From the IMG/VR virus record IMGVR_UViG_3300026549_001681: DNA of 64,000 nt. One strand, 5' to 3'. This document shows positions 1 to 63,094 of this stretch, piece by piece. This DNA comes from an uncultured virus (IMG/VR IMGVR_UViG_3300026549_001681) (lineage: Duplodnaviria > Heunggongvirae > Uroviricota > Caudoviricetes). The first letter of the stretch is position 1; each line of letters opens with the position of its first letter. Position numbers and translations under genes: made by a program. The notes under the pieces are model-generated. The model saw only the letters and a program-made list of their open reading frames with translations. It had not been told where the DNA came from and did no database searches.

Positions 1-437
1 ATAATCTCGCAGTAAACGGACAAAACCTCGTTAAGAGTGCTTGCCACGTCTTTCTTAACTTTGACAGAACCCGAAGCATACTCCTTCCAGTATCTAACTG
101 CGATATGGTCAGGCTTAAGAGTTGCAAGCGCGGAAAAGATCGGATCAGCTTCGGTAGTACCGTCAGCCTTGATATCCGTAGCCTTATCAACGAGTTCGAA
201 TACTTTGTCATAATTCTTCTCATGCTCAGCAAGCTCAAAGTAGACATAATACATAGCGGCTAACATCAAGCACTTAGCTGCATTTTCCCAGAAAGGATCA
301 ACTTTGTATTGGTCATCCATGCCGTGATCTTCACCGTATGAATGAACCATTTCAAAAGCTACACCGACCTCGGTCTCGATATCTCTTTGGACTTCGTTCT
401 GTCTTACGAGTGCAAACGGGTTATAGTTACATTTCAT
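1..437 (-). CDS. VirD4/TraG-like all-alpha-domain protein (runs off window start; not in ORF track)
   Basis: Manual translation MKCNYNPFALVRQ...KVDPFWENAAKCLMLAAMLCLY...; GGAGG RBS before ATG at 437; YNPF...DPFW signature of the VirD4 middle domain. Confidence 0.6.
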   Translation of the reverse strand, partial: MKCNYNPFALVRQNEVQRDIETEVGVAFEMVHSYGEDHGMDDQYKVDPFWENAAKCLMLAAMYYVYFELAEHEKNYDKVFELVDKATDIKADGTTEADPIFSALATLKPDHIAVRYWKEYASGSVKVKKDVASTLNEVLSVYCEI

Positions 438-460
438 TTTGGAAACCTCCTTATGGTTTG

Positions 461-901
461 TCATTCTTCCAGGTGCCAGATACCGTAGTCGATCTCATCT
501 TGCACTTCCTGATTAGTCTTATTTCCACCTTTCTTGCGGTTACAGCGCCAGCAAAGGCACTGAAGGTTATCTATGTCATTACCGCTCCCGCCACGCTTTA
601 CAGAGCGAATATGGTCTGCTTCCAAGAGCAGATAGTCGCCCAGGCCCGGACAGAGATCTTCCAGGAAGTCCCTGGAGATACCGCAGATCTGGCATGTGTA
701 ATTGTCTCTTTCAAAGACCGCCTCTTTGTCGGAACTCCGAATGTATCGTCTCTGTGAGAGCTCTCGCTGTTTTTGTTTTTGTCTCCGTATGCTTCTTCTG
801 AGCCATTTATACCGGAAGAAGATGACAAGCAAAGCAACGGCAACAATTACAAGAAGCAAGGCCTTAATTTTCGGATGTGAAGTCAATCTGTCTAAACTCA
901 T
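461..901 (-). CDS. HNH endonuclease with N-terminal transmembrane helix
   Basis: RDNYTCQICG...LEADHI...GG...NLQCLCWRCNRKK; hydrophobic N-terminus LLLVIVAVALLVIFF. Confidence 0.85.
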   Translation of the reverse strand: MSLDRLTSHPKIKALLLVIVAVALLVIFFRYKWLRRSIRRQKQKQRELSQRRYIRSSDKEAVFERDNYTCQICGISRDFLEDLCPGLGDYLLLEADHIRSVKRGGSGNDIDNLQCLCWRCNRKKGGNKTNQEVQDEIDYGIWHLEE

Positions 902-1692
902 AGGCTATGATTCGACCACCAGGGCTTTTTACCGTGTAGATGCTTTGAGATGTAATATGCACCTGACACAATACTGTCATCATCTGTAAGACCGTATTGA
1001 GAGAATAAAGTCAGAACCAGCTCCTCCAGAGGCCGCTTTTCGGGATGGTATTTGGCATCGTAAGCGTCATTTTCGATCCAATGGATCGCAGTTGGATCCT
1101 TTCTGACCGCAATCATTGCTTGGCAGACCTCGTAGAGCTCAGAGTGTTTGAAGAACCGTTCTTGACAACAACGGCTTATTTCTTTAACTAAACCTTCCGG
1201 CATAGTAAAATTCTCCAAAGCAGAGTCTTCTGGTGTCTTTTCAGCCTCTTCGGGTTCGATCTCATCAAAAGGAACAGGACCTTTCGGATACTCTTCCGTT
1301 TCAAAATAAGTGTCTTTTTTGCGTCTGCGGTACGCACCGTAATAATTGCCGAGGAATTCGTTGTATTTGACAAAGTAATAAGCAAGCTGTGGAGCCTTGT
1401 CAAAAACTTCGTCAATCAAATCTGACCAATAAGGAACACCGTGAAGCGTGCTTTCGTAGGAGAAAGAGAAACGTTCCGGATATTTGGCATACTCATTCTT
1501 GTTATTTGCATCTATGAAATCGCGAATAAACGACATAGAAGATTTTAACCCTTCATAAACTATGTCCTCATAATGAGTAACATGGCTGGTACCGGCTTGA
1601 CCGATAGCTATTTGTTCAGTTTCTGATGAAGGCTGCGTGGCGTCTGGCAATGTATCAGAGTTCATCTTGTTTCGTTTCGAATGATTAAACAT
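898..1692 (-). CDS. hypothetical protein
   Basis: 264-aa ORF with RBS, overlapping the HNH gene start, downstream of rep. Confidence 0.7.
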   Translation of the reverse strand: MFNHSKRNKMNSDTLPDATQPSSETEQIAIGQAGTSHVTHYEDIVYEGLKSSMSFIRDFIDANNKNEYAKYPERFSFSYESTLHGVPYWSDLIDEVFDKAPQLAYYFVKYNEFLGNYYGAYRRRKKDTYFETEEYPKGPVPFDEIEPEEAEKTPEDSALENFTMPEGLVKEISRCCQERFFKHSELYEVCQAMIAVRKDPTAIHWIENDAYDAKYHPEKRPLEELVLTLFSQYGLTDDDSIVSGAYYISKHLHGKKPWWSNHSL

Positions 1693-1716
1693 TGTATCTC
1701 CTCTCTTATCAAGAAG

Positions 1717-2769
1717 TTAAGTCTTTTTGTATTCGTTCTCAAGGCACTTAAGCAGGTACGAATCCAGGTTCTTTATCTTGTCTTTGGACAAAGTCAACGC
1801 TTTATGCTGCACAGCATTAAAAGTAAGCGCTCTTTCGTCCAAGTCGTCATACGGATAGTAAACTTGTGATGCTGCATCGAAAGCAACTATACCTCTGTCT
1901 GTAACACGCTCATCAGCATATTTCCTATAACGGTCTATGACTTCTCTGTGTTCGACATAAAAAGAGCAGATCTCGTCGTAATCGACAATGTCTTCTTTTT
2001 TTGTTTCTCCGGAGGGGACCGTTTCAGAATCGGACTCACTGAAAACATCACTGAGCAGGATCTTGTTTTCGTTCTTTGGATTGGCCTTGATACAGAAGAT
2101 TATCGTAAGCCAAACGCCACGAGCACCCACTTTACCGCGTTTGTATGTAAAACTAATATCTGTATATTCGTTAAGAGCCTTCTGACACACATCCAGCACA
2201 GCTCTTTTGAAGTTTCTCATATCCTCGTATTCGTTAGGAGCAATACCAAGTTTTTCACGGAGTTCCTGAACAGAGATTTCACATTCTCCATAATACTCAT
2301 GTCTTTTCAAGAACTCGTACATTAGACACTGGTTAGGTGACTTTAATCTGAGAATATTGCCTATTCTGTACGATACATAATCTTTCTTAAAGTTAAACAT
2401 CAAAGGAAGAGCGTCATCTGAAGCGTTCAGCTCTACATAAGCCTGACCTTTATCAACAATAACTCTGCATCTTTGGAATAAGACAGTCTGAGCATAAACT
2501 ACATTCTGCTCTTGATCCGGGCCATCAATAACGATCTGCAAGAGCTCCTTTGTTCGCTGTCTGAAATAATCAAGTTTAGGCTTAGTTGTCCAACCCATAA
2601 TTCTACAAAAATCATTTATAGGAATTCTTACATACCTGGACGCCGGGTTTCTTGCGTCGATTTTTGAAAGATAAACTCTCAAAAGACGACCTTCTTGAAA
2701 ACCGAGTTCCCGAACATATTTATCTAAGAAGTCACGACGTTCGACAATCTCATTACCTTTAATAATCAT
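1717..2769 (-). CDS. Rep_3 family plasmid replication initiator
   Basis: ALPLMFNFKKDYVSY...LRLKS..YEFLK...ISVQELREKLGI..Y..MRNFKRAVLDVCQKALNEYTDI; adjacent iteron array. Confidence 0.9.
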   Translation of the reverse strand: MIIKGNEIVERRDFLDKYVRELGFQEGRLLRVYLSKIDARNPASRYVRIPINDFCRIMGWTTKPKLDYFRQRTKELLQIVIDGPDQEQNVVYAQTVLFQRCRVIVDKGQAYVELNASDDALPLMFNFKKDYVSYRIGNILRLKSPNQCLMYEFLKRHEYYGECEISVQELREKLGIAPNEYEDMRNFKRAVLDVCQKALNEYTDISFTYKRGKVGARGVWLTIIFCIKANPKNENKILLSDVFSESDSETVPSGETKKEDIVDYDEICSFYVEHREVIDRYRKYADERVTDRGIVAFDAASQVYYPYDDLDERALTFNAVQHKALTLSKDKIKNLDSYLLKCLENEYKKT

Positions 2770-2820
2770 TTAGCCTCCAACAAAAGAATCCTTCCATCTG
2801 CTGATAGAAGGATACTTTTA

Positions 2821-2866
2821 CTTGTTATAATTCTTGTTATTATTCTTGTTATATCTATACTTGTTA
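2821..2866. repeat. AT-rich CTTGTTA repeats (4 copies), putative DNA unwinding element
   Basis: CTTGTTA four times between the rep start and the iterons. Confidence 0.6.
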
Positions 2867-2904
2867 CCGAGCAACGAAAGCAATGTTTTCAAGGCTTGCC
2901 AGAG

Positions 2905-3234
2905 TCAGATGTGTAGATTTATTCCTGAAAACCACTTCAGATGTGTAGAGATATTCTCAGATGTGTAGAGTTATTCTCAGATGTGTAGAGATATTCCCCG
3001 AAAAATCCAGATGTGTAGAGATATTCCCTGAATTACAGTAGAAACCCCGAAAAACAAGGGTTTGCCGCTCAGATGTGTAGAGATATTCTCTGGCAGATAA
3101 ATTCAGATGTGTAGAGATATTCTCAGATGTGTAGAGTTATTCCCCGATAAATCCAGATGTGTAGAGATATTCCCTGAATTACAGTAGAAGTCCCGAAAAA
3201 CAAGGGTTTGCCGCTCAGATGTGGAGAGATATTC
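2905..3234. repeat. Iteron array, 10 x 20-bp YCAGATGTGTAGAGWTATTC (replication origin)
   Basis: Copies start at 2905, 2937, 2957, 2977, 3007, 3069, 3103, 3123, 3153, 3215; directly upstream of the Rep_3 gene. Confidence 0.9.
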
Positions 3235-3331
3235 TCCCTCAATATGAAAAGAATATTCTCAAGGCTTTGCACCACTTGGTGCGTACACTATTTTGCAACA
3301 CACAACCGTGTTGTGTTTGTCACACGCAATG

Positions 3332-3340
3332 TTATCCACA
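3332..3340 (+). promoter_or_regulatory. DnaA box
   Basis: Perfect TTATCCACA about 100 bp from the iterons; one-mismatch copy TAATCCACA near 3378. Confidence 0.55.
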
Positions 3341-3814
3341 CTCCCTCAAGTGCTCTGAAGCAATCTTATTGTTAAGATAATCCACATATAATATGTCCCC
3401 GTCATCGGGATCCCGCTCATATATCAATGAATACGCAATGGCACAGCCAACCACATCGGAGATCATAAAGTTCATTGAATTACTGAGCCGCCTTACATCT
3501 TCTTTAACGAACTCAAAGAACCTTGTACTTTCAACTTCATTTTTGAACTCGTCTTCCATCCACTCAGTTATGCAAGGGAGCTTTGACAAAGTGTCCGAGA
3601 TCTGAAAATAATCATGAAACAAGGTAAGGCTCAACTCGAAATAAGCAAAAGCAGCTTTGACCAGGTTATCATCACGATTAACACGGAACGAAACAAAATC
3701 CTCTGTGTGACAGTGATAAATTTTGTCTTTCTCCCAATAGGTTGTGCCACCGGTAGTGTAGGACTTGATACATTTAACATCGAAAACATATTCCGTCATT
3801 ACACCATTCTCCAT
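3332..3814 (-). CDS. hypothetical protein
   Basis: 160-aa ORF in co-oriented run; start may be 3799. Confidence 0.6.
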   Translation of the reverse strand: MENGVMTEYVFDVKCIKSYTTGGTTYWEKDKIYHCHTEDFVSFRVNRDDNLVKAAFAYFELSLTLFHDYFQISDTLSKLPCITEWMEDEFKNEVESTRFFEFVKEDVRRLSNSMNFMISDVVGCAIAYSLIYERDPDDGDILYVDYLNNKIASEHLRECG

Positions 3815-4260
3815 TCCGCTGCAAGTATCATGTGCTGTTCTTTTGCTTCGCTGTATGCAGAGACAAGATATCTTTTTCCGTCTTCATTAAGATATTCGAT
3901 ATAGGTCTTGTCCTCACCAAATTCACAATCCTTATCACAAAAGATAGAGCAGACCTCCCAGTCTCCTTGCCAGTTGATAGCATACTCGTGATTGTTCATC
4001 TCGTATAAAAAGGCATCTACCGCAAACGCATGGTCTTTCATGAGCTCGGTCAGTTCTCCGGCTTTTTCAACCCATGCTTTTATTACAGGCGAATCTTTCT
4101 TCAGGTAAAAATGGCCCATAGTACCCAGACGATAAATGTCGTGTATCGTTGCGTTTCTCTGTGCAAGTTCTTTATCGAGCTGGTCTCTCGTCAGAGCATA
4201 GAAGATAGGAAGGGCATCAAACTCTTTCTGTCTTTTGGTGGTGTATTCCTCATAAGTCAT
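3799..4260 (-). CDS. hypothetical protein of a type seen on Firmicute mobile elements
   Basis: Start re-called at MTYEEY (4260) after AAAGGAG RBS; F.YEM.NHEY.INWQGD motif. Confidence 0.75.
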   Translation of the reverse strand: MTYEEYTTKRQKEFDALPIFYALTRDQLDKELAQRNATIHDIYRLGTMGHFYLKKDSPVIKAWVEKAGELTELMKDHAFAVDAFLYEMNNHEYAINWQGDWEVCSIFCDKDCEFGEDKTYIEYLNEDGKRYLVSAYSEAKEQHMILAAEWRMV

Positions 4261-4417
4261 ATAAAGAGGTCTCCTTTGCTTGATAAGTATTTTCGTCTGC
4301 ACACAAATCCGTGGCACAAGTTGTGTGTGTCCGAAGCGTGCCACGACCTTCGAATCCAATAACCATAATGACTTTACTCTCTGTTTGGGGTTGTGTCGTG
4401 TGTTGCGTTGTGTCAAA

Positions 4418-4921
4418 TCAACGCATAGGGAAGTACATTTCCATCTGCTCCGGATCAGGTCCCGCAGGAGCTCTGTCACAGAACGCGAAGTTGTTCTGTA
4501 ATATATCCACAATCTCACTGCTGTCTTTGTATCTGTGATTAGCAATGTCCATAACGAGGGCATAGGCTCTTTCCGGTGTCAGAGTGAGGTTAAAACCATT
4601 CTTATATAAGAACATATCACATACGGCATAACCAGTCCGCTTGTTACCATCAATAAATATCTGGTAATTGGCAAAATCAAAAAGATACTTCGCGGCCTTA
4701 TCGAACACGGTAGGGTAGAGATCAGTGCCAAACATCGTCTGGAACGGAGCTAAGACGACTGAGCGGAACAGGTCATCATCACGAAGTCCGTATGAACCGC
4801 CGTGAAGCCTTATCATATAGTCGTGAATACCGATGATCGAATCTGCCGTCAGGCACGCGATCTCCGTATTGTCTTCACCGAGCCGTTTATACATCTCGTT
4901 ATACTTAGCGTCGTCAATCAT
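4418..4921 (-). CDS. doc: Fic/Doc family toxin (variant motif QIFIDGNKR)
   Basis: IHDYMI..HGG..GLRD...LYPTVFDKAA...QIFIDGNKRTG; GGAGG RBS before ATG 4921. Confidence 0.85.
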   Translation of the reverse strand: MIDDAKYNEMYKRLGEDNTEIACLTADSIIGIHDYMIRLHGGSYGLRDDDLFRSVVLAPFQTMFGTDLYPTVFDKAAKYLFDFANYQIFIDGNKRTGYAVCDMFLYKNGFNLTLTPERAYALVMDIANHRYKDSSEIVDILQNNFAFCDRAPAGPDPEQMEMYFPMR

Positions 4922-4940
4922 AAATATATCCTCCGGGAAA

Positions 4941-4970
4941 TAAAAAAGAGACACCTCGAAGGTGCCTCTC
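4941..4970 (-). terminator. Intrinsic terminator-like hairpin between antitoxin and doc
   Basis: Minus strand GAGAGGCACC-TTCGA-GGTGTCTC followed by T run. Confidence 0.55.
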
Positions 4971-4994
4971 GTTATACAAATTCAAACTTTGTCC

Positions 4995-5150
4995 TTAATC
5001 CTTTTTCTCGTCTTCAGGAGTACCGTTTCCTGCGAGCCAATCAAAGAGCTTTCCGTACTTCTTGTCGAGATAACCAAACTCTTTGTCGCTCTCTTCAGGT
5101 GTCATAGGCGGAGTCTTTCTGTACTTATATTCTGTATGATCTTGTGCCAT
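4995..5150 (-). CDS. 51-aa putative Doc antitoxin (not in ORF track)
   Basis: MAQDHTEYKY...YLDKKYGKLFDWLAG...; GGAGG RBS; directly upstream of doc; KY..LF..LA resembles Doc antitoxin C-termini. Confidence 0.55.
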   Translation of the reverse strand: MAQDHTEYKYRKTPPMTPEESDKEFGYLDKKYGKLFDWLAGNGTPEDEKKD

Positions 5151-5180
5151 TCTATACTACCTCCGTGTTGTATTTTTCAA

Positions 5181-5212
5181 TATCATTATACAATGACAAT
5201 ATCATAAAATCA
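5181..5212 (-). promoter_or_regulatory. sigma-A promoter with 18-bp palindromic operator over the -10
   Basis: TTGATT-17-TATAAT; TGTCATTGTATAATGATA on minus strand. Confidence 0.7.
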
Positions 5213-5218
5213 AGCAAC

Positions 5219-5584
5219 TTACAGATACCAGACGCAGACCACAAGGTCGTTGTCGTTATCGAAAAAGGACCAGTAATCGCCGCCCGCTGCAAAGATAAAA
5301 TGACCGAGCACGCAGATCGCAACCGGTTCCTTGCAGGTCTTTAAGAATTCTGATAAAGTTATCCGTTCGTCCTTTTTATAGTATCTCTTTTTCTTCACGG
5401 AAAGAAACTGCCTGATGTATTTATCTTCAAGGTCAAGGGAAAGATACCCGTCGGGTTTTAGGCCGAAAGGATAGTTCTTTCTCGCTGTCGAGAAATAATC
5501 GCCCTTCAGGTACTCGTAAGCACATCCAGTCCCGACCATGGAGCAGGGAAGTTCTCTGAATTTCGGATCCGGTTCATAACGCAT
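5219..5584 (-). CDS. hypothetical protein
   Basis: 121-aa ORF downstream of the motif-associated promoter. Confidence 0.65.
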   Translation of the reverse strand: MRYEPDPKFRELPCSMVGTGCAYEYLKGDYFSTARKNYPFGLKPDGYLSLDLEDKYIRQFLSVKKKRYYKKDERITLSEFLKTCKEPVAICVLGHFIFAAGGDYWSFFDNDNDLVVCVWYL

Positions 5585-5659
5585 AGTCTTGCACCCCCAA
5601 ACAAAAAACGCAGGGAAAATGGCCTGAAGCTATATCTCTCTGCGTTATTATCTGAGTTT

Positions 5660-5719
5660 AGTATATCACTTCTCCCAGAATTGCAAATCGAAGATAAAAA
5701 ATCACCTTATTCGGGAGTT
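5660..5719 (-). promoter_or_regulatory. Extended -10 promoter with conserved upstream 21-bp motif (copy 1)
   Basis: TGaTATACT at 5668-5660; AAAAAATCACCTTATTCGGGA at 5696-5716. Confidence 0.7.
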
Positions 5720-5797
5720 AGCGATAAATTTATCGAGGATCGTCCTGGTAAACAACGCCGATTCTTGTACCCCATAAATATACTTCGCAAGCGTTAA

Positions 5798-6133
5798 TCA
5801 TTTTTCGTCACCCCACTTCCAATCACGGGACGGCTTTTGTTTTCTTGCACGTTTCCTTATAACCGTGCTCGCAATGTGGTAAGAAGGCCTGTCAAAAGGA
5901 TCCGGTATAAGCTCATCAAGGCTACTTTCCATCTTCATTGCTCCTAACAGTTTGATGAGGTTCTTAAGTCCGATATCACCGCCGCTCTCAAATCTTGCGA
6001 TCGTAGCAACGGAGACCATTGAAATATCAGCAAGTTCTTTTCTGGTAATAGAACTGTCTATACGGGTTTGTTTGAAACGGGCAGCGAGCTCTTCCAAGAT
6101 AGCCTTTTCATTCATCTGGTCGTCAATCTTCAT
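5798..6133 (-). CDS. XRE-family HTH regulator (HipB-like, orphan)
   Basis: RIDSSITRKELADISMVSVATIARFESG; C-terminal RKRARK..WKWGDE; start re-called at MKIDD. Confidence 0.85.
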   Translation of the reverse strand: MKIDDQMNEKAILEELAARFKQTRIDSSITRKELADISMVSVATIARFESGGDIGLKNLIKLLGAMKMESSLDELIPDPFDRPSYHIASTVIRKRARKQKPSRDWKWGDEK

Positions 6134-6385
6134 AGTGTTATCCTCCAAGTAAAGAATAATATCGTTGAAAATAAAATACAATATATGAGATATTAAACCG
6201 ATAATTAAGAGGTAAAAAAGCAAATATGATACTTTAATGTTCTGCTATTGGCCATTACCATCAATAAAAAAAGACTGATTGATTTTTTATATTTTTATTC
6301 TTTTTCGGTCTTGCTAAAACCTTTGTTTTATTGCGTTTGCGGTTCGATTACGGAGGTGTCGTTGCACGATTACGGACCATAGAGC

Positions 6386-7729
6386 TCATAAGGCCTGCCC
6401 GTTCCTGCTTTCATATATCTTTCCGTATATTTCTTTTATCTTGGCATCCGTAACCAGGGCTCTTCCTTCGTCTTCTGTCGCAAATACGCAGTAGTGACCG
6501 TCCTTATAGCCGAACCCGGCCGTTCTGCCGAGAACTGCGTTGACCGCAGTTTGCAGTGCACTGTAATCATCACCCGGGCAGGAATCGAGCAGGGGATACC
6601 ATTTCCCGTTCTCGAAAAGAGGCATCATTTTCTTAAGCAGCTCTTCTTCCGTAGCATTATCTACCCGGACAGAGATCGTGCCGTTGAAATAGACGATTCC
6701 GTTACCGGGAGCTCTGAATAATAACTCTTCAACACTCTTTCTTATGTACCGCACCGACATGACACTGTCGCCGTCGGGAAGATCGATCCGTTTCGGGTAG
6801 CCTTTAAGTTCTTCTGTCCTTTTTGCTTCCCAGATCTTACGGATCTCAGAAGAACAATTCCCGGTTTCAAAGCCGCTGTCATGCTTTCGATATAATTCTA
6901 ATTCCATGACACTATCGTAGAGAAGATGGAACTTGTCAAAGTTGTGATCGCTGTGATAATGCCCGAAATACCAGCCTTTGAAATCTACCTTCGAAGAACG
7001 CATGACAGCATCGAAGAAATCCGTCAGCTCATTAGAAGAACGGTAGTACATTCCCGGCATACCGGAACGATTCAAGTAGGACTCAGGCGCACAATGCGTC
7101 AGGATATAATCTACTTTTCCGCCGCACTTATCCAGATTAAGGAGCGCCTCTTCGTACTCAGCCGCAGACGGCAATTCCCGTGCCCACCACGAGAGGTTTT
7201 CGGTCCGGTATTCCTTATCTGTGGATTCCGCACCTCCAAAAGTAAAAAAAGTCGTACCTTCTATATCAAAGATCTGACCACGCATAAGATGAACAATGCT
7301 GTCGGTGATCCTGTGTATCTTACCGCCGTGCCATTCTTCGACCGGGTAACTGTCGAGAGCTGCGTGGTTCTCGTGATTACCGTCGATGAAGAGTGTTGTC
7401 CAGGGCATCTTGTCCCAGTAATCCTGAACAGAGCGGTCATGCCTCAGAGCTTTTTCAACATCGGCTTTAAGAGAAGCCTCAATCATTGAGAGCTCTGCGC
7501 TTGGTCTGGTTTTCCGATAGTCTTCCAAGCGTGACCTGGCCATGTCCTCAAATGTCTTTCGCACGGAAGGATCCCTTTCAGGATCGCCGATCCAGCACAT
7601 ACCCGCATCTCCCGTGATGATAAGGTAATCAGCTTTGGACAGCTCTTTGCCCATAAGAGTGTTGAATCGGTCTATCTTGATGGTGTCTTGAAGACCATGC
7701 GTATCGCCTGTGATAAAAATACGTGTCAT
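6386..7729 (-). CDS. Calcineurin-like metallophosphoesterase
   Basis: GDTHG, GD, GNHE, THC, FGHYH motifs. Confidence 0.9.
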   Translation of the reverse strand: MTRIFITGDTHGLQDTIKIDRFNTLMGKELSKADYLIITGDAGMCWIGDPERDPSVRKTFEDMARSRLEDYRKTRPSAELSMIEASLKADVEKALRHDRSVQDYWDKMPWTTLFIDGNHENHAALDSYPVEEWHGGKIHRITDSIVHLMRGQIFDIEGTTFFTFGGAESTDKEYRTENLSWWARELPSAAEYEEALLNLDKCGGKVDYILTHCAPESYLNRSGMPGMYYRSSNELTDFFDAVMRSSKVDFKGWYFGHYHSDHNFDKFHLLYDSVMELELYRKHDSGFETGNCSSEIRKIWEAKRTEELKGYPKRIDLPDGDSVMSVRYIRKSVEELLFRAPGNGIVYFNGTISVRVDNATEEELLKKMMPLFENGKWYPLLDSCPGDDYSALQTAVNAVLGRTAGFGYKDGHYCVFATEDEGRALVTDAKIKEIYGKIYESRNGQAL

Positions 7730-7777
7730 AAGTTTATTTGTATCATCATCCACTCCACAACACAACCGGTTGTGTGT

Positions 7778-8515
7778 TCAGCTGCGTCCAAGGTCAGAGT
7801 AGGCTTTTAAGAGCGACTCTATGCAGTTAGCAGCACAAGTAGTTGCCTCAGACAGGATTCCCGCACCTCGTTTTTTACTGTCTTCGCGAAGCAGACTGAC
7901 CGAGCGGACAAGCGTTTCTTCCGGTTCACCAAAAACACGGTCAGACTTGCCTTCGATCGCATCGATGCCGATCTCTATTGCTTTCACATAGTCAGTATTC
8001 GGTTCACAGTGAGCACGGATATCGTACAGTGCGAGCAACTCACGTGCCCTTCCGCCATAGTCAGTCACCAGAGTCTCAACGAACCCGTCTTCGAAATTAG
8101 GAAAACTTTCTTTCAATTCCTGGACGGCAGTTTGAAGCGACTTCGTACGCAAGAGAAGGTTACTTATAGTTCTGTAAGCCGAGGCTCTGCCCATGCGGAT
8201 AGCTTGTAATCTTCCGAGCTCGTTCCACTTGTGTTCAGAACGGGCCTTGTTTTCGGCATTTTCAGCTCTGGAGACGTTATAGTGCAACTTTTGCTGAAAC
8301 TCTGCACGGGGCAAAGGTCTGACATCCGTTCTTTTATATTCAAAATCAAAGTAGGATTCGAGCCACTCAACCGTAGCCTGATACATGGTCTTCATTTCCG
8401 TGTGCTCAGTGACCAGAAGAGACACGTCAACTTCAGGCGGCAGGGAATTCAGGTTGTCAAGTTCGATCATTTCTTTACCCATAAGTCCTACAACGCTTCG
8501 ATACATGTCGATCAT
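7778..8515 (-). CDS. hypothetical protein
   Basis: 245-aa ORF with AAAGGAG RBS. Confidence 0.7.
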   Translation of the reverse strand: MIDMYRSVVGLMGKEMIELDNLNSLPPEVDVSLLVTEHTEMKTMYQATVEWLESYFDFEYKRTDVRPLPRAEFQQKLHYNVSRAENAENKARSEHKWNELGRLQAIRMGRASAYRTISNLLLRTKSLQTAVQELKESFPNFEDGFVETLVTDYGGRARELLALYDIRAHCEPNTDYVKAIEIGIDAIEGKSDRVFGEPEETLVRSVSLLREDSKKRGAGILSEATTCAANCIESLLKAYSDLGRS

Positions 8516-8700
8516 AAAAAACTCCTTTCAAAACAGCAATAAAATCCTTCCATTCCTGTTTGATTATTATTGTCTGAATATTCTTTACTATTGTCTTTTA
8601 AAGATAGAACTTCCTCTTTTGTCAAAATCATGTCAAAATCAGATTTTCCTTCTTTGCACGATTACGGATACTTTGTCACAAACCTCGGTCAAGGCCTTCG

Positions 8701-8892
8701 TTACCGAGGCAAACCTTCAGCCATACACTCTGCCAAAGCATTTGTATACACTTCGTTTAATTCATCGGCAAGCTCCGGTGGCACCTTGTCTGTTATGCCG
8801 TGTTTCTCATAAAACCTTCCCATAGCAAGTCCAACGTGCATACCGTGCGAAAATCCGTCATGATATGCTCTGTCCATTTTGTCCTGCGTCAT
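8701..8892 (-). CDS. small hypothetical protein
   Basis: MTQDK start after AAAGGAG RBS. Confidence 0.6.
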   Translation of the reverse strand: MTQDKMDRAYHDGFSHGMHVGLAMGRFYEKHGITDKVPPELADELNEVYTNALAECMAEGLPR

Positions 8893-9094
8893 AAAAGTTC
8901 TCCTTTCCGACACAAAAACGTGGCACAAGTTGCGTGTGTCCGAAGTTGTGTCATTGCCGTCTGATGCAATGACCTCAAGCATTTCAGACTCTGAAAAGTG
9001 TTGTGTCAGGGTGTTGTGTCAGTGTTTTTTGTCTGTTGGTTAGTGCAAAAAAAAAAGACACCCGAAGGTGCCTTGCAGTTATAGACCGGAACTG

Positions 9095-9187: not shown

Positions 9188-9191
9188 AATG

Positions 9192-9458: not shown

Positions 9459-9523
9459 AAAGACTCCTTTCGTATAAAAACCGTGAGGAACCGGGAAAGC
9501 TCCCCACGGCATTAGTTCAATAC

Positions 9524-10795: not shown

Positions 10796-12004
10796 TTACA
10801 GGTACAAAGACAATATCTTCGCCTGACAATATCGGCAATGCTTCTCGACTCGGAGGCAGTTTTCGTTGTCCCAGTCATCAGTGATCGGGAACTCATTGAC
10901 CTTGTTGCAACTTGGGCAGATAACACTGATCTTAGTCAGATCCCGACCACTGGGAATTTCTTTTGAAGTTGCCTTATCCTGACTGGAGTTCTTGCCGGAC
11001 CAATATTTATCGTACACGGCCTGGCATCCTTTCACAAACACAAAGGCCTCCGTTACCAAGCTGTATAAAAGCTCTTTCGATTCAACGGTTTTGCGGGTAA
11101 CAGGCCGGTAGTAATTCTTCCTTGGTGTCGTGCCGGCTCCGGTCGTCTGTCCGAACATCTTTGACACAAGATTTGCAGTATCAATATCCCTGATTCCGAG
11201 ACACAGCATGGTGTCACAAGCTCCGACAATCGCAGCTCCGTCTTCTGTATACTGCGTCAAGGCACCATACGAAGGTACGTTCACCGATGCCGACATGTTC
11301 CTGGAATTCATTGACGTAAGATAGTGCAGGAAAAGCTCCGGTACCGCGTTAAGAAACTCGTCCATAAAAAAGTGGACATGAACAGGAACCGTATTAAAAA
11401 ATGAATACAAACCTTTGAGAAGTTTTTCATATAAAAGCCCAATCGAAGCATTGGATTTTCCGTTATCTGCAACAATGAAAACCGCAGTTAAATGCTGTCC
11501 CAGCTTAGCACAGATCTCGTTTATCTTTTTCTCGGTAATCTCAACCTGTGGATCCTTGATAAAGTCCAATACAACAAGATCATACTGTTTCGACTCCAAT
11601 TCTTCTTTGACCTGGCAAAGCGCCTCTCCTTTATAATCGAAAAGTACGAACGAAGTATTTCCGCACAGTATGTTTGGCTTGATGTAGCGAGAAAGCACGC
11701 ACGGCCCGTATCCGTTGAACACTATCGTATTCATGTTCAGTTCCCGGTCTTTTATCTGCTCGGCAAATCCGATCTTGACATTCTCGGACAATAACCTGTA
11801 ATACTTCGCATTGTCAGAACAGTATCCCTTTTCCGTTATTGAAGGAACTGTAACAGCCTGACGCGGCCCTCCGTAAATGTGGTATTTGACAGTCGGAACA
11901 CTTATGCCGTATTTATCGGCAAGTTGCTGATAGGTAAATTGTCTGCTTCGGTATAAAGCAATCATCTCGTCGTATTGCCAGTCTTCAAGTTTTTGTCTGG
12001 GCAT
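10796..12004 (-). CDS. HTH + degenerate VirD4/TraG-like domain + C-terminal Zn ribbon
   Basis: TYQQLADKYGISVPTVKYH; YIKPNIL..NTSFVLFDYKGE; VHFFMDEF; SRNMS; IVGACDTMLCLG; CPSC...CRYC. Confidence 0.7.
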   Translation of the reverse strand: MPRQKLEDWQYDEMIALYRSRQFTYQQLADKYGISVPTVKYHIYGGPRQAVTVPSITEKGYCSDNAKYYRLLSENVKIGFAEQIKDRELNMNTIVFNGYGPCVLSRYIKPNILCGNTSFVLFDYKGEALCQVKEELESKQYDLVVLDFIKDPQVEITEKKINEICAKLGQHLTAVFIVADNGKSNASIGLLYEKLLKGLYSFFNTVPVHVHFFMDEFLNAVPELFLHYLTSMNSRNMSASVNVPSYGALTQYTEDGAAIVGACDTMLCLGIRDIDTANLVSKMFGQTTGAGTTPRKNYYRPVTRKTVESKELLYSLVTEAFVFVKGCQAVYDKYWSGKNSSQDKATSKEIPSGRDLTKISVICPSCNKVNEFPITDDWDNENCLRVEKHCRYCQAKILSLYL

Positions 12005-51893: not shown

Positions 51894-51957
51894 CAACGGT
51901 TACGACCGTAAGGCAATAGATTTATAAAGTTAATTTAGCCATAAGGAGGAAATAAAT

Positions 51958-54965: not shown

Positions 54966-54986
54966 GGCCTAAAGCCCTTGATATTC

Positions 54987-55019
54987 TTGACTTTGATACA
55001 ATATCGTTGTATAATGACA
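54987..55019 (+). promoter_or_regulatory. sigma-A promoter with 18-bp operator variant
   Basis: TTGACT-17-TATAAT; TATCGTTGTATAATGACA. Confidence 0.7.
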
Positions 55020-55047
55020 TTGTAAGAAAAATAAGGAGAATAAGGCT

Positions 55048-56516: not shown

Positions 56517-57009
56517 AAGCATTTCCTCCTTGTTTTTGGATTTCTATTTATATGATGCCGAGCAAGACTCAAAATCGGACTGATTTATCGAACAATGTAT
56601 GGGAGTTGTGTTACAAAATACAAAGTATGTCAAACAATTCTTTTTCCCAGACGTGAACAGGAAAACGGTGTATCGCGCCGTGGATACACGCTTAAACTGC
56701 AAAAATAAGCCCGTACCGTGCCCAAGCAAAAGGAGCGATACGGGTTTATCTCATTGTTCCTGTCGGTGAATACCGTGTTATATTCGCTGACATTTCGATT
56801 ATACGACGACCAAAATAGCAAGGTCAATGAATTTGGGATGTTACATACAGAGTTAGCAAAAAACGGAGTAATAGGAGTAGTAGCAAACTTTGCGGGAATG
56901 TGGTAATGGACAAAGAAATTATCTGTGAAATAATGCTTGAATTATATTGAAGATTCAATACTAAAGGAATAATATTATTCTGTAAATCATTTGTATGAGA
57001 GGTGTTCAC

Positions 57010-58824
57010 ATGCCTAAGTTTTTGACTGAAGATGAAGTAAGAGATGCTGATAAGATCGCTCTTGGTTTTGATAATGTTTTAGAGGTTGGTGTCAAACAAG
57101 GAACCGGTCAGATAACCACATTTAAGCAGTTGGGTATTGTTGGAGACGGTGATAACCATAAGCCTGACGGTTGGCGTATTCCTGAAAACAAAAATGATGT
57201 GGCGATTTTGCTTGAAACTAAAAATAGCAATGAAGATGTTGGTGCTAAGAAATGGATCCTCGAAATAATGAAAAATTGTGAGATCCTTTCCAATGCCGGT
57301 TATAAGAAAATCATTGGTATCCTTCACAATGGCTATAAAGCTATTGGTTTTTACAATGGAGAGCCCATTGATATTCCGGATGAAATACAGAACAAGCAGT
57401 TTTATATCGATCTGGTGAACAATCAGGGAATTGATCAGAAGAAGATTTATGATACTACAAGACGTATTAACAATAATCTTCATGTCAATTTCGGTGTTAA
57501 GAATTTGTATCATAGAATGATTTTTACTGCTTGTGCATTAGTTGCAGAGAGATACGGTGCTAACCTTGAGACCTTAAAGGGTAGAGCATTTTCAATGCTT
57601 CACACTCAGATATTAAGCACGATCAACAAATCATTAGAGAATGATAAAAAACAGAACGGCAAGCTTAAGATTCTGGAAGATGTATATTCAAAGATAGAAA
57701 TGAATTATACAGAGAATCAGGATGCTATTGATAGTTTTATCGATGACGTTTGTGAGATATCTGATTGTATCAACTCGAATGAATGGCGTGGAGAAGATGT
57801 TATGGGTATCTTCTTTAATGAGTTCAATCGCTATAAGAAGAAGTCTGAAGCTGGTCAGATCTTTACACCTGAACACATCACATCGTTTATGTATCGGTTG
57901 ATATGTGTAACTGAGAATGATTATGTTGGTGATTTCTGCTGTGGATCCGGTGGATTTCTTGTTAAGTCTATGAGTAACATGATGCGGTCTGCTGGTGGTT
58001 ATGATACCAATAAGGCAAAGGATATTCGTAAAAATCATTTATTTGGTATCGAATGGGATAAGGAAATTTATGCGCTTGCTTGTGCTAATATGCTTATCCA
58101 TAAAGACGGTAAGACCAATCTGGATCAGAATGATATGAGAAGTGAGTCAGCTTGTGAATGGGTTAAATCTAAGCCTATTACAAAAGTTCTGATGAACCCG
58201 CCTTATGAGAATAAGTATGGCTGCATGACTATTGTCGAAAATGTTCTTGATTCAGTCAAGGCAGGAACAGATTGTGCATTTATCTTACCTGATAAGAAAC
58301 TTGAAAAGGCTTCAAAAGCACAGATTAAGCGTATCTTATCAAATCATACACTTACGAAGATTATTAAACTGCCTGAGCCGTTATTCTTTGGTGTAGGCGT
58401 TACTACTTCTATCTTTGTATTCAAGACAGGACAGCCTCAGAACGGTGCTGAAATCTTCGGATGCTATATCGAAGATGACGGCCTTGAAACTGTTAAGAAT
58501 GAAGGCAGACAGGATATTAAGCATAAGTGGAAGGATATCGAAGATTATTGGATTGACAGTATCGGTAAACTCCGTGACACCGAGCATAATACAGCACAGT
58601 GGATAAACCCTAAAGAACATCTGTCATATCAGATGCCTGAAAAGCCTTTTGAGATTTCAGAGGAAGATTTCAAGAAAACTGCTATGGATTATATCTGCTT
58701 CAAGAATGGTATTGATACCAAAGAGTTCGGTGAGAAACTGCTTAATTCTGCTCTGTATGGTAGTGAAGTTACATCTGATGATACTGGCGTTCATATCAAG
58801 ATAGGCGGTGGTTCAAATGATTGA
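57010..58824 (+). CDS. Fused endonuclease/N6-adenine methyltransferase (BcgI-alpha/type IIB-IIG-like)
   Basis: PDG...LETK nuclease motif; GQIFTP; D.CCGSGGFL; NPPY. Confidence 0.88.
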   Translation: MPKFLTEDEVRDADKIALGFDNVLEVGVKQGTGQITTFKQLGIVGDGDNHKPDGWRIPENKNDVAILLETKNSNEDVGAKKWILEIMKNCEILSNAGYKKIIGILHNGYKAIGFYNGEPIDIPDEIQNKQFYIDLVNNQGIDQKKIYDTTRRINNNLHVNFGVKNLYHRMIFTACALVAERYGANLETLKGRAFSMLHTQILSTINKSLENDKKQNGKLKILEDVYSKIEMNYTENQDAIDSFIDDVCEISDCINSNEWRGEDVMGIFFNEFNRYKKKSEAGQIFTPEHITSFMYRLICVTENDYVGDFCCGSGGFLVKSMSNMMRSAGGYDTNKAKDIRKNHLFGIEWDKEIYALACANMLIHKDGKTNLDQNDMRSESACEWVKSKPITKVLMNPPYENKYGCMTIVENVLDSVKAGTDCAFILPDKKLEKASKAQIKRILSNHTLTKIIKLPEPLFFGVGVTTSIFVFKTGQPQNGAEIFGCYIEDDGLETVKNEGRQDIKHKWKDIEDYWIDSIGKLRDTEHNTAQWINPKEHLSYQMPEKPFEISEEDFKKTAMDYICFKNGIDTKEFGEKLLNSALYGSEVTSDDTGVHIKIGGGSND

Positions 58825-59869
58825 TACAAGCACTTGGAAAGAGTTCAGGGTTGGTACTTTGTTTGATGTAAGCAGACCTTCTTCAAGAAGTTCACAGAAT
58901 TATGATGAAGGCGATATGCCTTTTGTAGCATCTGGAAATTTCAATAATGGGGTTACAGCCTACTTACAGCCGAAAGACGATAATGATTACGATGAAGGTG
59001 GCTGTATTACTGTGAGTGCTGTTGATGGTTATGCTTTCTATCAAAAGGATAAGTTTCTTGGTCGTGGCGGTGCAGGTTCCTCTATAATGATGTTAAGGAA
59101 TGACAACCTTAATGAATTAAATGGAAAGTATATTTGTACTTTAATTCGCAAGGCTTGTAATGATTGGGAATATTCCAATATGGGTAATAAGGACAAACTT
59201 GCTGATACTATGATATGGCTCCCCATTACATCTACAGGTGAACCTGATTGGCAGTATATGGAAGATTATATGAAGGCTGTCATGGAAGAATCAGAAAAAA
59301 GCCTTGAGAATCTGAGAAAAACCGATGATACAAAACATCTGATTGATATGAGCGGATGGAAAAGATTTCATTTATATGATGATTGTATGTTCGGTATTGA
59401 CATGGGAACGAAGATGGACAAGGCTAAGATGAAAGAAATTCACCCTTCTGTCAACTTCGTAGGTAGAGCAAATGCAAACAACGGTATTACTACTTGTGTT
59501 GATAAAATAGATGATATTGAACCTTATCCTTCTGGCTATATGACATTATCATTGGGTGGTGAATATCTTGGTTCTTGTTTTATTCAACCTAAACCATTTT
59601 ACACAAGCCAGAATGTAATTGTGTTAATACCTAACGATAATATGACGGATAATGTTAAAAGGTTTATAGCGACTATGATATTCAAAGAAAGTCGTTCAAA
59701 ATATAAGGCTTTTGTAGATGAGTTAAATCGTCATATTAAAACTGATTTTTCAATTCCACTTCCTATCACCTCAACAGGCGAACCTGATTGGCAGTATATG
59801 GAAGATTATATGCAAAGAATAATGGATAAATCAGAGCAGATTATATCTGATTTGCAGATTGGAGCGTAA
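58817..59869 (+). CDS. RM specificity subunit with two TRDs (BcgI-beta-like)
   Basis: Two WK.F...NNG...LPITSTGEPDWQYMEDYM repeats; overlaps the MTase stop. Confidence 0.85.
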   Translation: MIDTSTWKEFRVGTLFDVSRPSSRSSQNYDEGDMPFVASGNFNNGVTAYLQPKDDNDYDEGGCITVSAVDGYAFYQKDKFLGRGGAGSSIMMLRNDNLNELNGKYICTLIRKACNDWEYSNMGNKDKLADTMIWLPITSTGEPDWQYMEDYMKAVMEESEKSLENLRKTDDTKHLIDMSGWKRFHLYDDCMFGIDMGTKMDKAKMKEIHPSVNFVGRANANNGITTCVDKIDDIEPYPSGYMTLSLGGEYLGSCFIQPKPFYTSQNVIVLIPNDNMTDNVKRFIATMIFKESRSKYKAFVDELNRHIKTDFSIPLPITSTGEPDWQYMEDYMQRIMDKSEQIISDLQIGA

Positions 59870-60519: not shown

Positions 60520-60872
60520 ACAGCGTTGAACAAGTTTCAACATAGTGCCTGGGCATCCTCTTTCTCTGTCGCCCGACGAGGAGAGGATGTCTGTCTTTTC
60601 TCTGCCGGCATCTACTTATAGTATTCCGTTCACTTTCCGAGAACAGAAACCACTATGTATAGTCGGATACGGTTTTGTGGCTAAATTTAGCCAGCACAAC
60701 CACAATATGTGGACAACGTAGTGTTTCGTCCTTGACAAAAATCAACTTAACCCCAATATGTAGAGCATTACAAAACCCCGGACAGACTAACTCGATCCGG
60801 GGCTCAGTGTGTGCAAACTAATCTCAATAATTTTCGTGGCGGATACCACACTATAATTATAATTCTCAAAAC

Positions 60873-60900
60873 AATAAAAAGCAAACAAATTTTCGTTTTT
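60873..60900. repeat. 28-bp direct repeat, left copy
   Basis: AATAAAAAGCAAACAAATTTTCGTTTTT identical to 63102-63129. Confidence 0.9.
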
Positions 60901-61003
60901 ATACACGCACTTACAGACACACCAAAAGTCACCCAGAGCGAACGAAATGTCAGTTGAAATGTCCGCTTCGTTGTCGGTATATTGAGGAGAACAGGAGGTT
61001 ACT

Positions 61004-63094
61004 ATGCTCGTTGACTCTATATTGAATGAAACATTAAACATCACTGATACTTCTACCATGAAAGAGTTTGCTGAACGGGTTGGTGTCAGCGAACGGCAGA
61101 TATTACGCTGGAGAAAAGAAAGGTGCGTGCCTCGTACCCGCACGATCAACGAAGTATATGACCGACTACGCAGTATGTGTCCTGAACAGTCCCAAAGGCT
61201 CTCAGAACTCGAAAAGGAGATGATTAAGGTCTGTATTCACCTGAGAGGCGAGCCGTTCGTTAGAAGTGAACACAGAGCTAAAGGCGATAATGATGTTCTC
61301 CAGAGGGCTGACAATGATTTTATACTCGGTAAGAAATTCAGGTTTAATACCAAGATTTTAGGCCACGCAAGGAACAATAACGTCTTCGTGGTTGGAATGA
61401 GCGGAAAAGGTAAGACTTCGTGTATCGTCGAACCTAATCTGTTACAGCGTAATGCGTCCTATATCGTAGCAGATGCAAAGGGCCAGATTGTCAATACGGT
61501 TGGAGGACTGTTGCAAATGCCCGGTACATCTGACGATGGTTATAATATTAGGATACTGAATCTCAAGGATCCGTCCTGCTCATTCCATTACAATCCTTTC
61601 CGTTATATCAGAAATGAAAATGACTGCGTGGTTTTGGGAAGAATAATCGCATTACACGATTGCGATGGTAACAAAACCAGTAGTGTTGATGCTTTTTGGG
61701 ATAATACGAGCAGTCAGCTTATCACTGCGTTGATTTACTTCCTCTGGAAATATGGTTCTAAAGAAGAACAGAACTTTGTTAATTTGCTGAGCTTGTTAAA
61801 GCTAAGTAGTGAAGGCTTAGTAGGAAGAAATTGTTATCTTAAAGAGATGTTTCGCTTGCACTCTGACGATTTGTTTTTGATGGCACAAGCGGGATGTATG
61901 TTAGCAGCAAGCGAAAGAACACTTGATAGTATTATCAGTATTACCTACTCCTGCGTAGCACCTTTAGCAGAACCGGCGGTGTCCGAGATGATGTTGTACG
62001 ATGAACTGCATTTGGAGGACTTTGCGGAAAGAAAGACAGCCGAGATACCGTCTTTGTTTGTTGTATGTGATGATATTCTGTCCAACAAAAACTTTATTGC
62101 TTGTATGTTATATAAGCAGTTGTTTGAACTGCTTTGTGAACACGCTGATCGCAGTCCGCTTGGAAGACTGCCGTTCCCGGTACGGTTTTTCCTTGATGAT
62201 TTTACTACGCTTGGACAGATACCTGATTTTAGTAATCTGATGTCTAATATGAGGTCAAGGAATATTTCCGTTGTCTTGATGGTGCAAAACGAAAATCAGC
62301 TTCAGGCTGTCTATGGAAATCAGTCAGAGAATATTATCGAGAACTGTAACTACTATGTTTGCTTGGGCGGGAACAGTTTAGACCAACAGGATAAGACCAA
62401 GAGGCGTTTTGGCAGGCGTATGTTTGAGAGAAACCGTGACAAAGGGTTTTATTTGGTGGATAACACTAAACGGCTTTACAATATCCGTCCGCTTCATTAT
62501 CAGGAACACCCCAACTGGTTTAATTATCCCTTTAATTATGTTGACTATATTCAGAGTAGGAAGAGGAAGGAAAGTCCTGCTTCGTTAATTGACATAGAAG
62601 AATTACAGCTTTGTTGTGAAATAAACAGCGAAGAACTCGGTAAGATTAAGCGTAAGACTAATGTATTGGATAGTTTTGCGGAAAAAGAACTTTATTCCGT
62701 TGTTGCAAGAACTGTGAAAAGCAAGTATTTAGTTGTTCCGCACTGTCATCTAAACGAGTTAGTGGATCTGAGTCATATTCGTTCCTTGGTTGTAAAGAAG
62801 AGACTGTCAATGATGCACTGTGATCTGATGGTCTTTGATAAAGATAATGTTAAGCCTGTTTGCGGTATTGAATGTGACGGGCCTTCGCATGATGAATCAG
62901 AGCAGAAAGTTCTCGATGAATATAAAGACATGGTATTTGAGCAAATAGGAATACCTCTACTGAGATTGAAATTGAATGGTCTTGGTGACGTTGCGGATTA
63001 CGATGCAATTTGCTCTAAGGTGCTGGAAATGGTAAAAGAATACGAAGAGCATAAGGCCGAGAATGATAAAGAGGCTTTGTTGACAGCATTATAA
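61004..63094 (+). CDS. HTH + VirD4/TraG-like ATPase + DUF2726-like nuclease-fold fusion
   Basis: EFAERVGVSERQILRW; GMSGKGKT..VEPNLLQ; YNPF; DAFW; FFLDDF; RSRNIS; EKELY...HCDL...IECDGPSH...D..KD..F...GIPLLR. Confidence 0.85.
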   Translation: MLVDSILNETLNITDTSTMKEFAERVGVSERQILRWRKERCVPRTRTINEVYDRLRSMCPEQSQRLSELEKEMIKVCIHLRGEPFVRSEHRAKGDNDVLQRADNDFILGKKFRFNTKILGHARNNNVFVVGMSGKGKTSCIVEPNLLQRNASYIVADAKGQIVNTVGGLLQMPGTSDDGYNIRILNLKDPSCSFHYNPFRYIRNENDCVVLGRIIALHDCDGNKTSSVDAFWDNTSSQLITALIYFLWKYGSKEEQNFVNLLSLLKLSSEGLVGRNCYLKEMFRLHSDDLFLMAQAGCMLAASERTLDSIISITYSCVAPLAEPAVSEMMLYDELHLEDFAERKTAEIPSLFVVCDDILSNKNFIACMLYKQLFELLCEHADRSPLGRLPFPVRFFLDDFTTLGQIPDFSNLMSNMRSRNISVVLMVQNENQLQAVYGNQSENIIENCNYYVCLGGNSLDQQDKTKRRFGRRMFERNRDKGFYLVDNTKRLYNIRPLHYQEHPNWFNYPFNYVDYIQSRKRKESPASLIDIEELQLCCEINSEELGKIKRKTNVLDSFAEKELYSVVARTVKSKYLVVPHCHLNELVDLSHIRSLVVKKRLSMMHCDLMVFDKDNVKPVCGIECDGPSHDESEQKVLDEYKDMVFEQIGIPLLRLKLNGLGDVADYDAICSKVLEMVKEYEEHKAENDKEALLTAL

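Follow-up and report, generated by a model that had tools for sequence, protein, structure and literature searches.

The closest described relatives of the genes studied here are the type IV coupling proteins (T4CPs) of the Firmicute CD1115 family (NCBIfam NF045973), together with TrwB, Cag-beta, PcfC and VirD4. We analysed a stretch of 64,000 nucleotides recorded as an uncultured virus (IMG/VR IMGVR_UViG_3300026549_001681; the whole stretch is called the window below), and identified three genes, (a), (b) and (c), that are related in sequence to these coupling proteins, (b) and (c) also sharing their predicted fold. In contrast to CD1115-family T4CPs, none of the three has a membrane anchor or lies in a transfer operon. 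Gene (a) is the all-alpha domain (AAD) alone; (b) lacks the AAD and the catalytic lysine, arginine and glutamine; and (c) has a DD Walker B motif, lacks the C-terminal hairpin and is fused to a nuclease. The most likely reading is that VirD4 parts have been reused in regulation or defence, and we give the explanation of all three genes developed below a probability of roughly 0.45.

Other described systems resemble these genes in part. HerA-DUF4297 and Sir2-HerA are antiphage systems in which a ring ATPase of the HerA/FtsK superfamily is coupled to a nuclease or other effector, as in (c). However, (c) is an ATPase of the VirD4 branch with an AAD, in one chain with DUF2726, encoded by a single gene without a partner, and the PADLOC models of both systems fail to match it. 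Chromosomal cassettes of a ClpP-like gene and a DD-type VirD4 belong to the same anchor-less DD-Walker-B clade as (c), whereas (c) is plasmid-borne, carries a nuclease and has no ClpP or adaptor neighbour. TraJ of pIP501, together with TraI, is likewise a soluble VirD4 domain without N-terminal helices (PMC7434980), but proteins of this type keep a complete ATPase, are encoded in transfer operons and have a membrane partner of their own, unlike the genes here. PifC, Osa and FipA are accessory plasmid genes that act at the coupling step (PMC5696584), and CagZ acts on the AAD (PMC9886983). These four have unrelated folds, whereas the inhibitors proposed here would be pieces of the coupling protein itself; Pfam and NCBIfam gave no match to PifC, Osa or FipA. 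A literature search, with most subscription papers outside its scope, brought up no report of VirD4 fused to DUF2726, of a lone AAD in nature or of a pseudo-ATPase without AAD. The family of (c) is apparently undescribed; the parts are known, and ATPase-nuclease defence has precedent.

Genes (a) and (b) and the coupling protein of the element family

Sister elements of the window are present in genomes G001 (89-99% DNA identity, in many contigs) and G003. Both, and locus L067, encode a canonical, membrane-anchored VirD4 in an operon that runs on into the gene of a VirB4 of CD1110 type; in L067 a relaxase gene lies upstream of it. The original prediction that the window holds three anchor-less VirD4 derivatives agrees with their peak 19-residue hydropathy (0.99 for (a), 1.36 for (b) and 1.28 for (c), against 2.95 for the canonical sister VirD4, with no transmembrane helix in any of the three) and with hidden Markov model searches, which returned a VirD4-family match for each, those of (a) and (b) under the NF045973 cut-off.

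Gene (a) begins with an ATG at position 437 behind a GGAGG ribosome-binding site. Its stop codon was read from locus L065, which is identical to window positions 1-10464 and forms part of a 271,402-bp metagenome contig. The gene is thus complete, at 188 aa, and starts at the YNPF...DPFW region without a Walker A motif, as had been proposed. The product consists of the AAD (YNPF...DPFW...TLN) and an unrelated 43-aa tail, with neither Walker A nor Walker B. It has no Pfam VirD4 match and matches positions 91-225 of NF045973 (E 2.4e-13, 50 bits, cut-off 250 bits). Identity to the canonical VirD4s of G001 and G003 is 58%, and in the tree (a) clusters with these and with that of L067 (ultrafast bootstrap, UFBoot, 100). 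Its protein cluster has 16 members, and all 15 that are listed are full length (188-195 aa). Relative to L066, we counted 6 synonymous and 5 non-synonymous changes over 125 codons, a ratio of non-synonymous to synonymous rates (dN/dS) of 0.20 (P 0.011); relative to the canonical parent, dS is saturated, dN is 0.4 and the frame is open. In two cases (144,967 and 56,346 bp) a member of the (a) cluster and an intact canonical VirD4 are recorded on contigs of the same length.

Outside this plasmid family (a) was not found as a lone domain. Among 100 genomes of the host genus no AAD-only frame was identified, all 28 matches (in 25 genomes) lying within frames of at least 360 aa. A wider search for lone AADs returned 28 clusters; of the 27 besides that of (a), the 11 that we read resemble cut or interrupted VirD4s, and none starts at YNPF. 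Scans of viral contigs with (a), (b) and protein P0163 found no relative, and no RNA pieces cover (a) in the RNA libraries checked. The slot of (a) falls in an assembly gap in G001. The HNH gene that precedes (a) has one predicted membrane helix. We additionally identified a protein of 280 aa on a 954-nt contig (P0363), 40% like (a), which combines an AAD and core with a degenerate Walker B (FYLED) and is possibly a further dead VirD4 derivative.

Gene (b) aligns with both halves of the VirD4 core, the AAD being deleted between them, and matches TraG-D_C (Pfam, E 2e-10) and, in two stretches, NF045973 (E 1e-26, 94 bits, again under the cut-off). The claim that it keeps KPN, DYKGE, FFMDEF and SRNMS and has lost the AAD and GKT was confirmed. 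Less was recovered of its proposed additions, the helix-turn-helix (HTH) giving only Pfam matches below cut-off (E about 0.01) and the zinc ribbon consisting of a CxxC...CxxC arrangement (363-366 and 390-393) without Pfam match. The Walker A motif reads GYGPCVLS, with valine in place of lysine; the arginine finger, aligned with R375 of TrwB, is asparagine, and the sensor glutamine is proline, while the Walker B DE is kept. All three lost residues are present in each of 107 other aligned sequences and missing from both b-type proteins, (b) and the G003 homologue below. In an AlphaFold2 model the core is confident (predicted local distance difference test, pLDDT, mostly 80-93 over aa 91-280) and the HTH and zinc-ribbon parts are of low confidence. 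The predicted core matches Cag-beta and TrwB (Foldseek E 3e-9); structure prediction, proposed earlier as a check, placed both this core and (c) in the TrwB/Cag-beta fold.

Compared with G001, the core of (b) has 9 synonymous and 6 non-synonymous changes (dN/dS 0.19, P 0.002), and the whole gene has a dN/dS of 0.32, against 0-0.39 for neighbouring genes. At ratios of 0.19-0.20, (a) and the core of (b) do not behave as decaying fragments. All 18 listed members of the (b) cluster are full length (381-437 aa). In G003 we identified a b-type gene of 303 aa, 33% identical to (b), with the same AAD deletion and catalytic losses and without HTH or zinc ribbon. It occupies the slot held by (a) in the window, between the HNH gene and the same downstream gene. 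The two b-type proteins form a sister pair (FastTree 0.984) that falls with the canonical VirD4 of the family (FastTree 0.923; IQ-TREE UFBoot 100 on 33 sequences), on long branches whose topology needs care. The trees show (a) and (b) to be derived from a duplicated copy of the VirD4 that belongs to the element family itself.

Short RNA contig pieces lie inside (b) in three RNA libraries of three studies; expression of (b) is not established by them, because intergenic DNA is covered in these libraries as well. Alleles P0135 and P0138 of (b) have the N-terminus replaced or extended, and the HTH part is therefore exchangeable. Directly downstream of (b), at window 9524-10441, lies a Pro/Thr-repeat lipoprotein gene with the best RNA cover of the stretch examined; the C-terminal 95 aa of its product resemble a gene in a conjugative region (L018 4018-5046).

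The VirD4-DUF2726 gene (c) and its cassette

Gene (c) matches PF02534 (E 2e-33) and DUF2726 (E 2.9e-17, 63 bits against a cut-off of 24.7), and passes the NF045973 cut-off (273 against 250 bits). It had been described as a near-complete ATPase fused to an HTH and a DUF2726-like domain. The ATPase, with intact Walker A, arginine finger and sensor glutamine and an inserted AAD, and the DUF2726 part were both recovered; the N-terminal HTH stays below cut-off (MerR_1, E 0.017), and the earlier reading had missed that Walker B is DD and not DE. The C-terminal hairpin of canonical VirD4 is missing. The fold matches of (c) include HerA structures as well as TrwB and Cag-beta.

The DD motif separates this group from coupling proteins in the alignment, being found in (c) and in 26 of 26 fused relatives, against DE in 52 of 52 canonical VirD4s. 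We searched 1.84 billion representative sequences with a profile of (c), P0002 and P0003, and classified the best 150 of 19,521 matches, a ranking that favours (c)-like proteins, from which the nuclease profile was also built. Among these 150, 25 are anchor-less DD proteins with the nuclease (two being from the query set), 17 are anchor-less DD proteins without it, 92 are anchored DE proteins, 15 are DE proteins without visible anchor and one has DN; none of the 107 DE proteins carries the nuclease. Pfam confirmed DUF2726 in all 23 new fused proteins, in 21 above cut-off (57 proteins scanned). Across 27 fused proteins the Walker A lysine, DDF, finger arginine, sensor glutamine and nuclease residues E560, D607, G626 and H629 are invariant, E623 and D625 are kept in at least 90%, and all fused DD proteins end before the canonical C-terminal hairpin. 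The architecture recurs in 25 clusters below 50% identity.

All DD proteins, including (c), form one clade (UFBoot 99), with (a) and (b) outside it. This clade includes chromosomal, nuclease-free members from the genus and family of the host, where 11 of the 12 loci without anchor carry a cassette of an orf, a ClpP-like gene (confirmed by Pfam in the four loci tested) and a soluble DD-type VirD4. The common story told for the three genes by the original prediction is thus not supported. The phylogeny shows (c) to be of a different origin, an independent mobile cassette from a wide clade of soluble DDF-type VirD4s.

The nuclease fusion is rare among species genomes. We did not find it in 300 other genomes of the order or 399 of the class (three to four candidates were scored per genome, and misses are possible), and no record in PLSDB plasmids or phages matched with 80% cover. 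A scan of viral contigs with query A3 gave 80 loci, of which only L153 extends into the nuclease part. A DNA pattern for the nuclease motif hit three loci in viral contigs (two being the L153 protein and one unrelated) and three in genome contigs, all unrelated. The L153/L159 context is a plasmid-like contig with a ParA-like gene and a relaxase, with no type IV secretion system (T4SS) gene seen within 8 kb. In L159 (4886-7660) the gene of a 924-aa protein, which has a nuclease-like domain in its centre and 11 DUF4379 zinc fingers, is convergent with the VirD4-DUF2726 gene. The ESM Atlas additionally holds several clusters of 50-78 members in which HTH_3 is fused to PF02534 (432-600 aa, some labelled viral), with scores of 0.85-0.89 that make them leads only.

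In the window (c) forms a 2.2-kb single-gene cassette between identical 28-bp direct repeats. It is adjoined upstream by a slot whose type IIG-like restriction system differs between the window, G001 and G003. In comparison with allele P0002, the motor is 96-98% identical (110/114 and 172/175 positions), the AAD 68% (91/134) and the nuclease 73% (80/110). That the gene is gained and lost, has defence genes as neighbours and varies in its recognition and effector domains suggests the pattern of a conflict gene.

The 28-bp repeat resembles a Gram-positive SOS box. This candidate was rejected: with 21 occurrences in the window for 20.4 expected, the pattern shows no enrichment, and the empty site in G003 explains the repeat as a duplication.

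The surrounding replicon

The coordinates of the main features are collected in Table 1. None of the 58 window proteins scanned is a phage structural protein. The window carries helicases, a topoisomerase, a family A polymerase, a restriction system, four tRNAs, a Rep3 initiator and iteron-like repeats, and near-identical pieces of the element were found in bovine and sheep gut libraries. The statement that no T4SS genes lie nearby is true of the window and of the 10 kb beyond it (translations inspected by eye); nevertheless, the replicon is conjugative in type. Cluster members of the three genes that flank the canonical VirD4 are recorded on the 271,402-bp contig, with the same source labels as window proteins, and this indirect evidence makes it very probable that the transfer region lies elsewhere on that contig. 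The window is best explained as a piece of a 271-kb megaplasmid of conjugative type from a Firmicute of the ruminant gut, the host being inferred from the type of T4SS.

Table 1. Positions of the three VirD4-derived genes and associated features (window coordinates unless a locus is named).
Feature	Position	Strand	Evidence
(a), lone VirD4 AAD, 188 aa	1..437, last 130 nt beyond window start	-	L065 DNA, NF045973
Membrane-anchored HNH gene directly upstream of (a); marks slot of b-type gene in G003	461..901	-	Pfam, hydropathy
Rep3-family replication initiator (plasmid replicon)	1717..2769	-	Pfam
Iteron-like repeats upstream of Rep3, 8 copies of 13-nt core	2910..3236	not assigned	repeat search
(b), 402-aa AAD-less VirD4 pseudo-ATPase: HTH-like N-terminus, core ~aa 55-340, C-terminal CxxC-CxxC	10796..12004	-	Pfam, NCBIfam, alignment, model
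Type IIG-like restriction-methylase and specificity subunit; replaced in G001 and G003	56995..59869	+	Pfam, PADLOC
Left 28-bp direct repeat of (c) cassette	60873..60900	+	repeat search
(c), 696 aa: HTH-like region, soluble DDF-type VirD4 with AAD, DUF2726 restriction-fold nuclease	61004..63094	+	Pfam, alignment, profile search
Right 28-bp direct repeat, directly upstream of promoter-like site before tRNA cluster	63102..63129	+	repeat search
tRNA-Asn, Phe, Lys, Lys cluster adjoining cassette	63545..63958	+	tRNA search
Chromosomal ClpP-like / DD-type VirD4 cassettes	L193-L203 (genomes G233, G020, G038, G007, G077, G056, G004, G085, G054, G002)		

Several further features of the replicon were noted. 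The Rep3 initiator is swapped between a 350-aa type and an unrelated-looking 406-aa type among elements that are otherwise 96-98% identical (window 1717-2769; L013 30-1250; L066 211-1431; L068 1817-3034), and the genes after it are variable too. A phage-like replication set of family A polymerase, DUF2800 nuclease and SNF2 helicase is present at window 47671-52827 and 31135-32556. At 21317-24073 lies the gene of a 918-aa protein without Pfam or PADLOC match, coupled to that of a 977-aa UvrD helicase (24070-27003); a DNA search of G001 gave no match to this pair. A Gp49/RelE-like gene with a small partner at 13344-14112 resembles a toxin-antitoxin pair, and a Fic/Doc gene lies at 4418-4954. The promoter-like motif GTATAATGACATT stands before each of several transcription units and the tRNA cluster (5174-5214, 35486-35532, 47392-47445, 54986-55039 and 63133-63170). 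Two intergenic GAACAAATGTTC boxes, at 31088-31099 and 41070-41081, resemble Gram-positive SOS boxes.

Proposed functions, alternatives and significance

Isolated AADs are folded monomers that bind substrates (PMC8740702), and AADs recognise cognate relaxosome proteins (PMC7434980, PMC13463995). Gene (a), which has kept only this substrate-recognition domain, may act as a soluble decoy: by binding relaxosome proteins from its own element or from close relatives, it would lower the transfer of those elements, a role to which we give an even chance. In the work of Whitaker et al. of 2015 (J Bacteriol), lone AADs reportedly reduced cognate transfer. Fertility inhibitors, which are fast-moving accessory genes, aim at coupling proteins (PMC5696584), and coupling proteins can become dominant negative when inactive or chimeric (PMC7431656). 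Hexamer contacts are made by the core, the AAD adding little to the ring (PMC9886983). Gene (b) has kept the ring-forming core; having lost every catalytic residue but Walker B, it therefore cannot pump. It could serve as a dead subunit or as a scaffold, modulating either the coupling protein or, by way of its HTH, transcription, but we hold this only tentatively, with the odds against it, and it is the weakest link of the scheme.

DUF2726 is a DNase of the restriction endonuclease fold that occurs in defence fusions (PMC3710099), and Cag-beta mutants in the Walker B glutamate lose ATPase activity (PMC9886983). The AAD of (c) would recognise an element that invades or shares the cell, by one of its proteins or by its DNA; the ring would bind ATP and engage DNA, and the fused nuclease would then cut it, the change from glutamate to aspartate in Walker B making the ATPase slow or switch-like. 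We slightly favour the view that (c) is an anti-mobile-element defence, an ATP-gated nuclease directed at foreign elements. A bolder version, in which gut-Firmicute elements turn the coupling protein into weapons, the variable AAD of (c) sensing foreign relaxosomes, its nuclease destroying the attached DNA, and the lone-AAD decoy and dead motor serving as backup, is unlikely.

A number of observations weigh against the main explanation given here for the three genes. Genes (a) and (b) were found only within this plasmid family; AAD-less frames occur in 2 of 100 genus genomes, with none further in the 399 class genomes, and the b-type gene of G003 is split in two in another strain. The nuclease fusion is seen in just two genomic contexts, this element and L153/L159. 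Gene (c) is absent from G003, which has an empty site with one copy of the 28-bp repeat and both flanks, and is frameshifted by a 17-bp deletion in the nearest relative, G001, from which it differs by 5 synonymous and 8 non-synonymous changes with a dN/dS that is not significant (P 0.11). In PADLOC, (a) and (b) have no match, and (c) matches only mad8, weakly and over its ATPase part (E 7e-7). The source label of the window's contig is absent from all 13 members of the canonical-VirD4 cluster; the coupling protein of the window's own element may be diverged, broken or missing, so that an intact target would be lacking. Finally, in the same work of Whitaker et al., soluble AAD-less domains are said to have shown no negative dominance, which speaks against (b) as a poison subunit.

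Some of these points would fit slow decay, the genes being by-products of duplication and shuffling in a gene-collecting plasmid that stay open through recent origin or weak selection. The narrow range of (a) and (b), the frameshifts in (c) of G001 and in a b-type allele, the dN/dS of whole (b) near the top of its neighbours' range, and RNA cover that is thin, and nil for (a), all agree with this. However, the frames are open even though synonymous sites between (a) or (b) and the parent are saturated; the synonymous excess in (a) and the (b) core is significant, the AAD-less, P-loop-dead form survives in two lineages as far apart as (b) and its G003 homologue, loss is restricted to catalytic residues, and the (c) architecture is spread over its 25 divergent clusters, which makes decay improbable. 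It had also been suggested that (a) and (b) act as a split protein; the halves would reassemble into a soluble dead VirD4, a complete substrate-binding decoy. Their boundaries do complement nearly exactly (NF045973 91-225 in (a), before ~90 and after 243 in (b)), each is placed as sister to one and the same clade of canonical VirD4s, and the b-type gene in the (a) slot of G003 fits fission of one ancestral duplicate. Yet domain boundaries are the sole cut points that leave folded pieces, so that complementarity is expected regardless. The two genes are separated by 10.4 kb, the 99% complete genome G003 carries a b-type gene but no gene for a lone AAD, and the model of (b) closes the AAD gap with its own loop and a helix at 158-170. 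Run X12 contains (b), on a 24-kb contig, and there the contig with the HNH gene runs on into different DNA, a weak point as the contigs differ. A reconstituted pair would still have no P-loop lysine, arginine finger or anchor. Complex prediction of (a) with the (b) core (score 0.01, mark 0.32) is evidence neither way. A common origin by fission is possible and a working reassembled enzyme is not, and we consider the split decoy quite improbable.

For (c), and perhaps (b), a rather unlikely alternative is that they are the plasmid's own regulators or DNA-processing machines, in replication, resolution or transcription control, with a nuclease fold that binds or nicks the plasmid's DNA. Most DD relatives in the host genus are chromosomal, nuclease-free and placed behind a ClpP-like gene (the 11 of 12 loci above), several Atlas clusters join HTH_3 to VirD4 (leads only, as noted), the Walker B change suggests a slow, switch-like ATPase, and both (b) and (c) would have gained an HTH. 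It would, however, be unusual for a core plasmid function to come and go as a cassette beside swapped restriction systems while its AAD and nuclease diversify, and the HTH is missing from other fused members and from the b-type gene of G003. That the genes are working anchor-less coupling proteins of the pIP501 TraJ type, which borrow a small membrane partner to mobilise DNA, is very improbable. Such a subfamily is already described (PMC7434980), (c) passes the NF045973 cut-off (273 against 250), and a membrane-anchored HNH gene precedes both (a) and the G003 b-type gene; but (a) has no ATPase and (b) neither Walker A lysine nor finger, and Walker A mutants fail to transfer (PMC7434980, PMC13463995) and AAD deletion abolishes transfer (PMC13463995). 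In (c), both the Walker B glutamate that Cag-beta requires (PMC9886983) and the membrane-side hairpin are missing, and neither a membrane gene nor a transfer gene adjoins it. The reuse of VirD4 folds as regulators, inhibitors or defence genes, as originally proposed, thus stands as the most likely reading, though not as a single story shared by all three.

The family of (c) and the lone AAD would surprise a conjugation specialist, whereas (a) and (b) themselves are narrow in range. If (a) is a decoy, it would be the natural counterpart of an engineered conjugation inhibitor, the lone AAD, and a starting point for efforts to block the spread of plasmids among gut Firmicutes. Should (c) prove to be a defence enzyme, it would represent a new single-gene ATPase-nuclease family, which may respond to the conjugation machinery of other elements instead of to parts of phages, and whose genes automatic annotation currently miscalls as transfer proteins. 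The DD Walker B offers mobility surveys a simple marker that tells non-transfer VirD4s from true coupling proteins.

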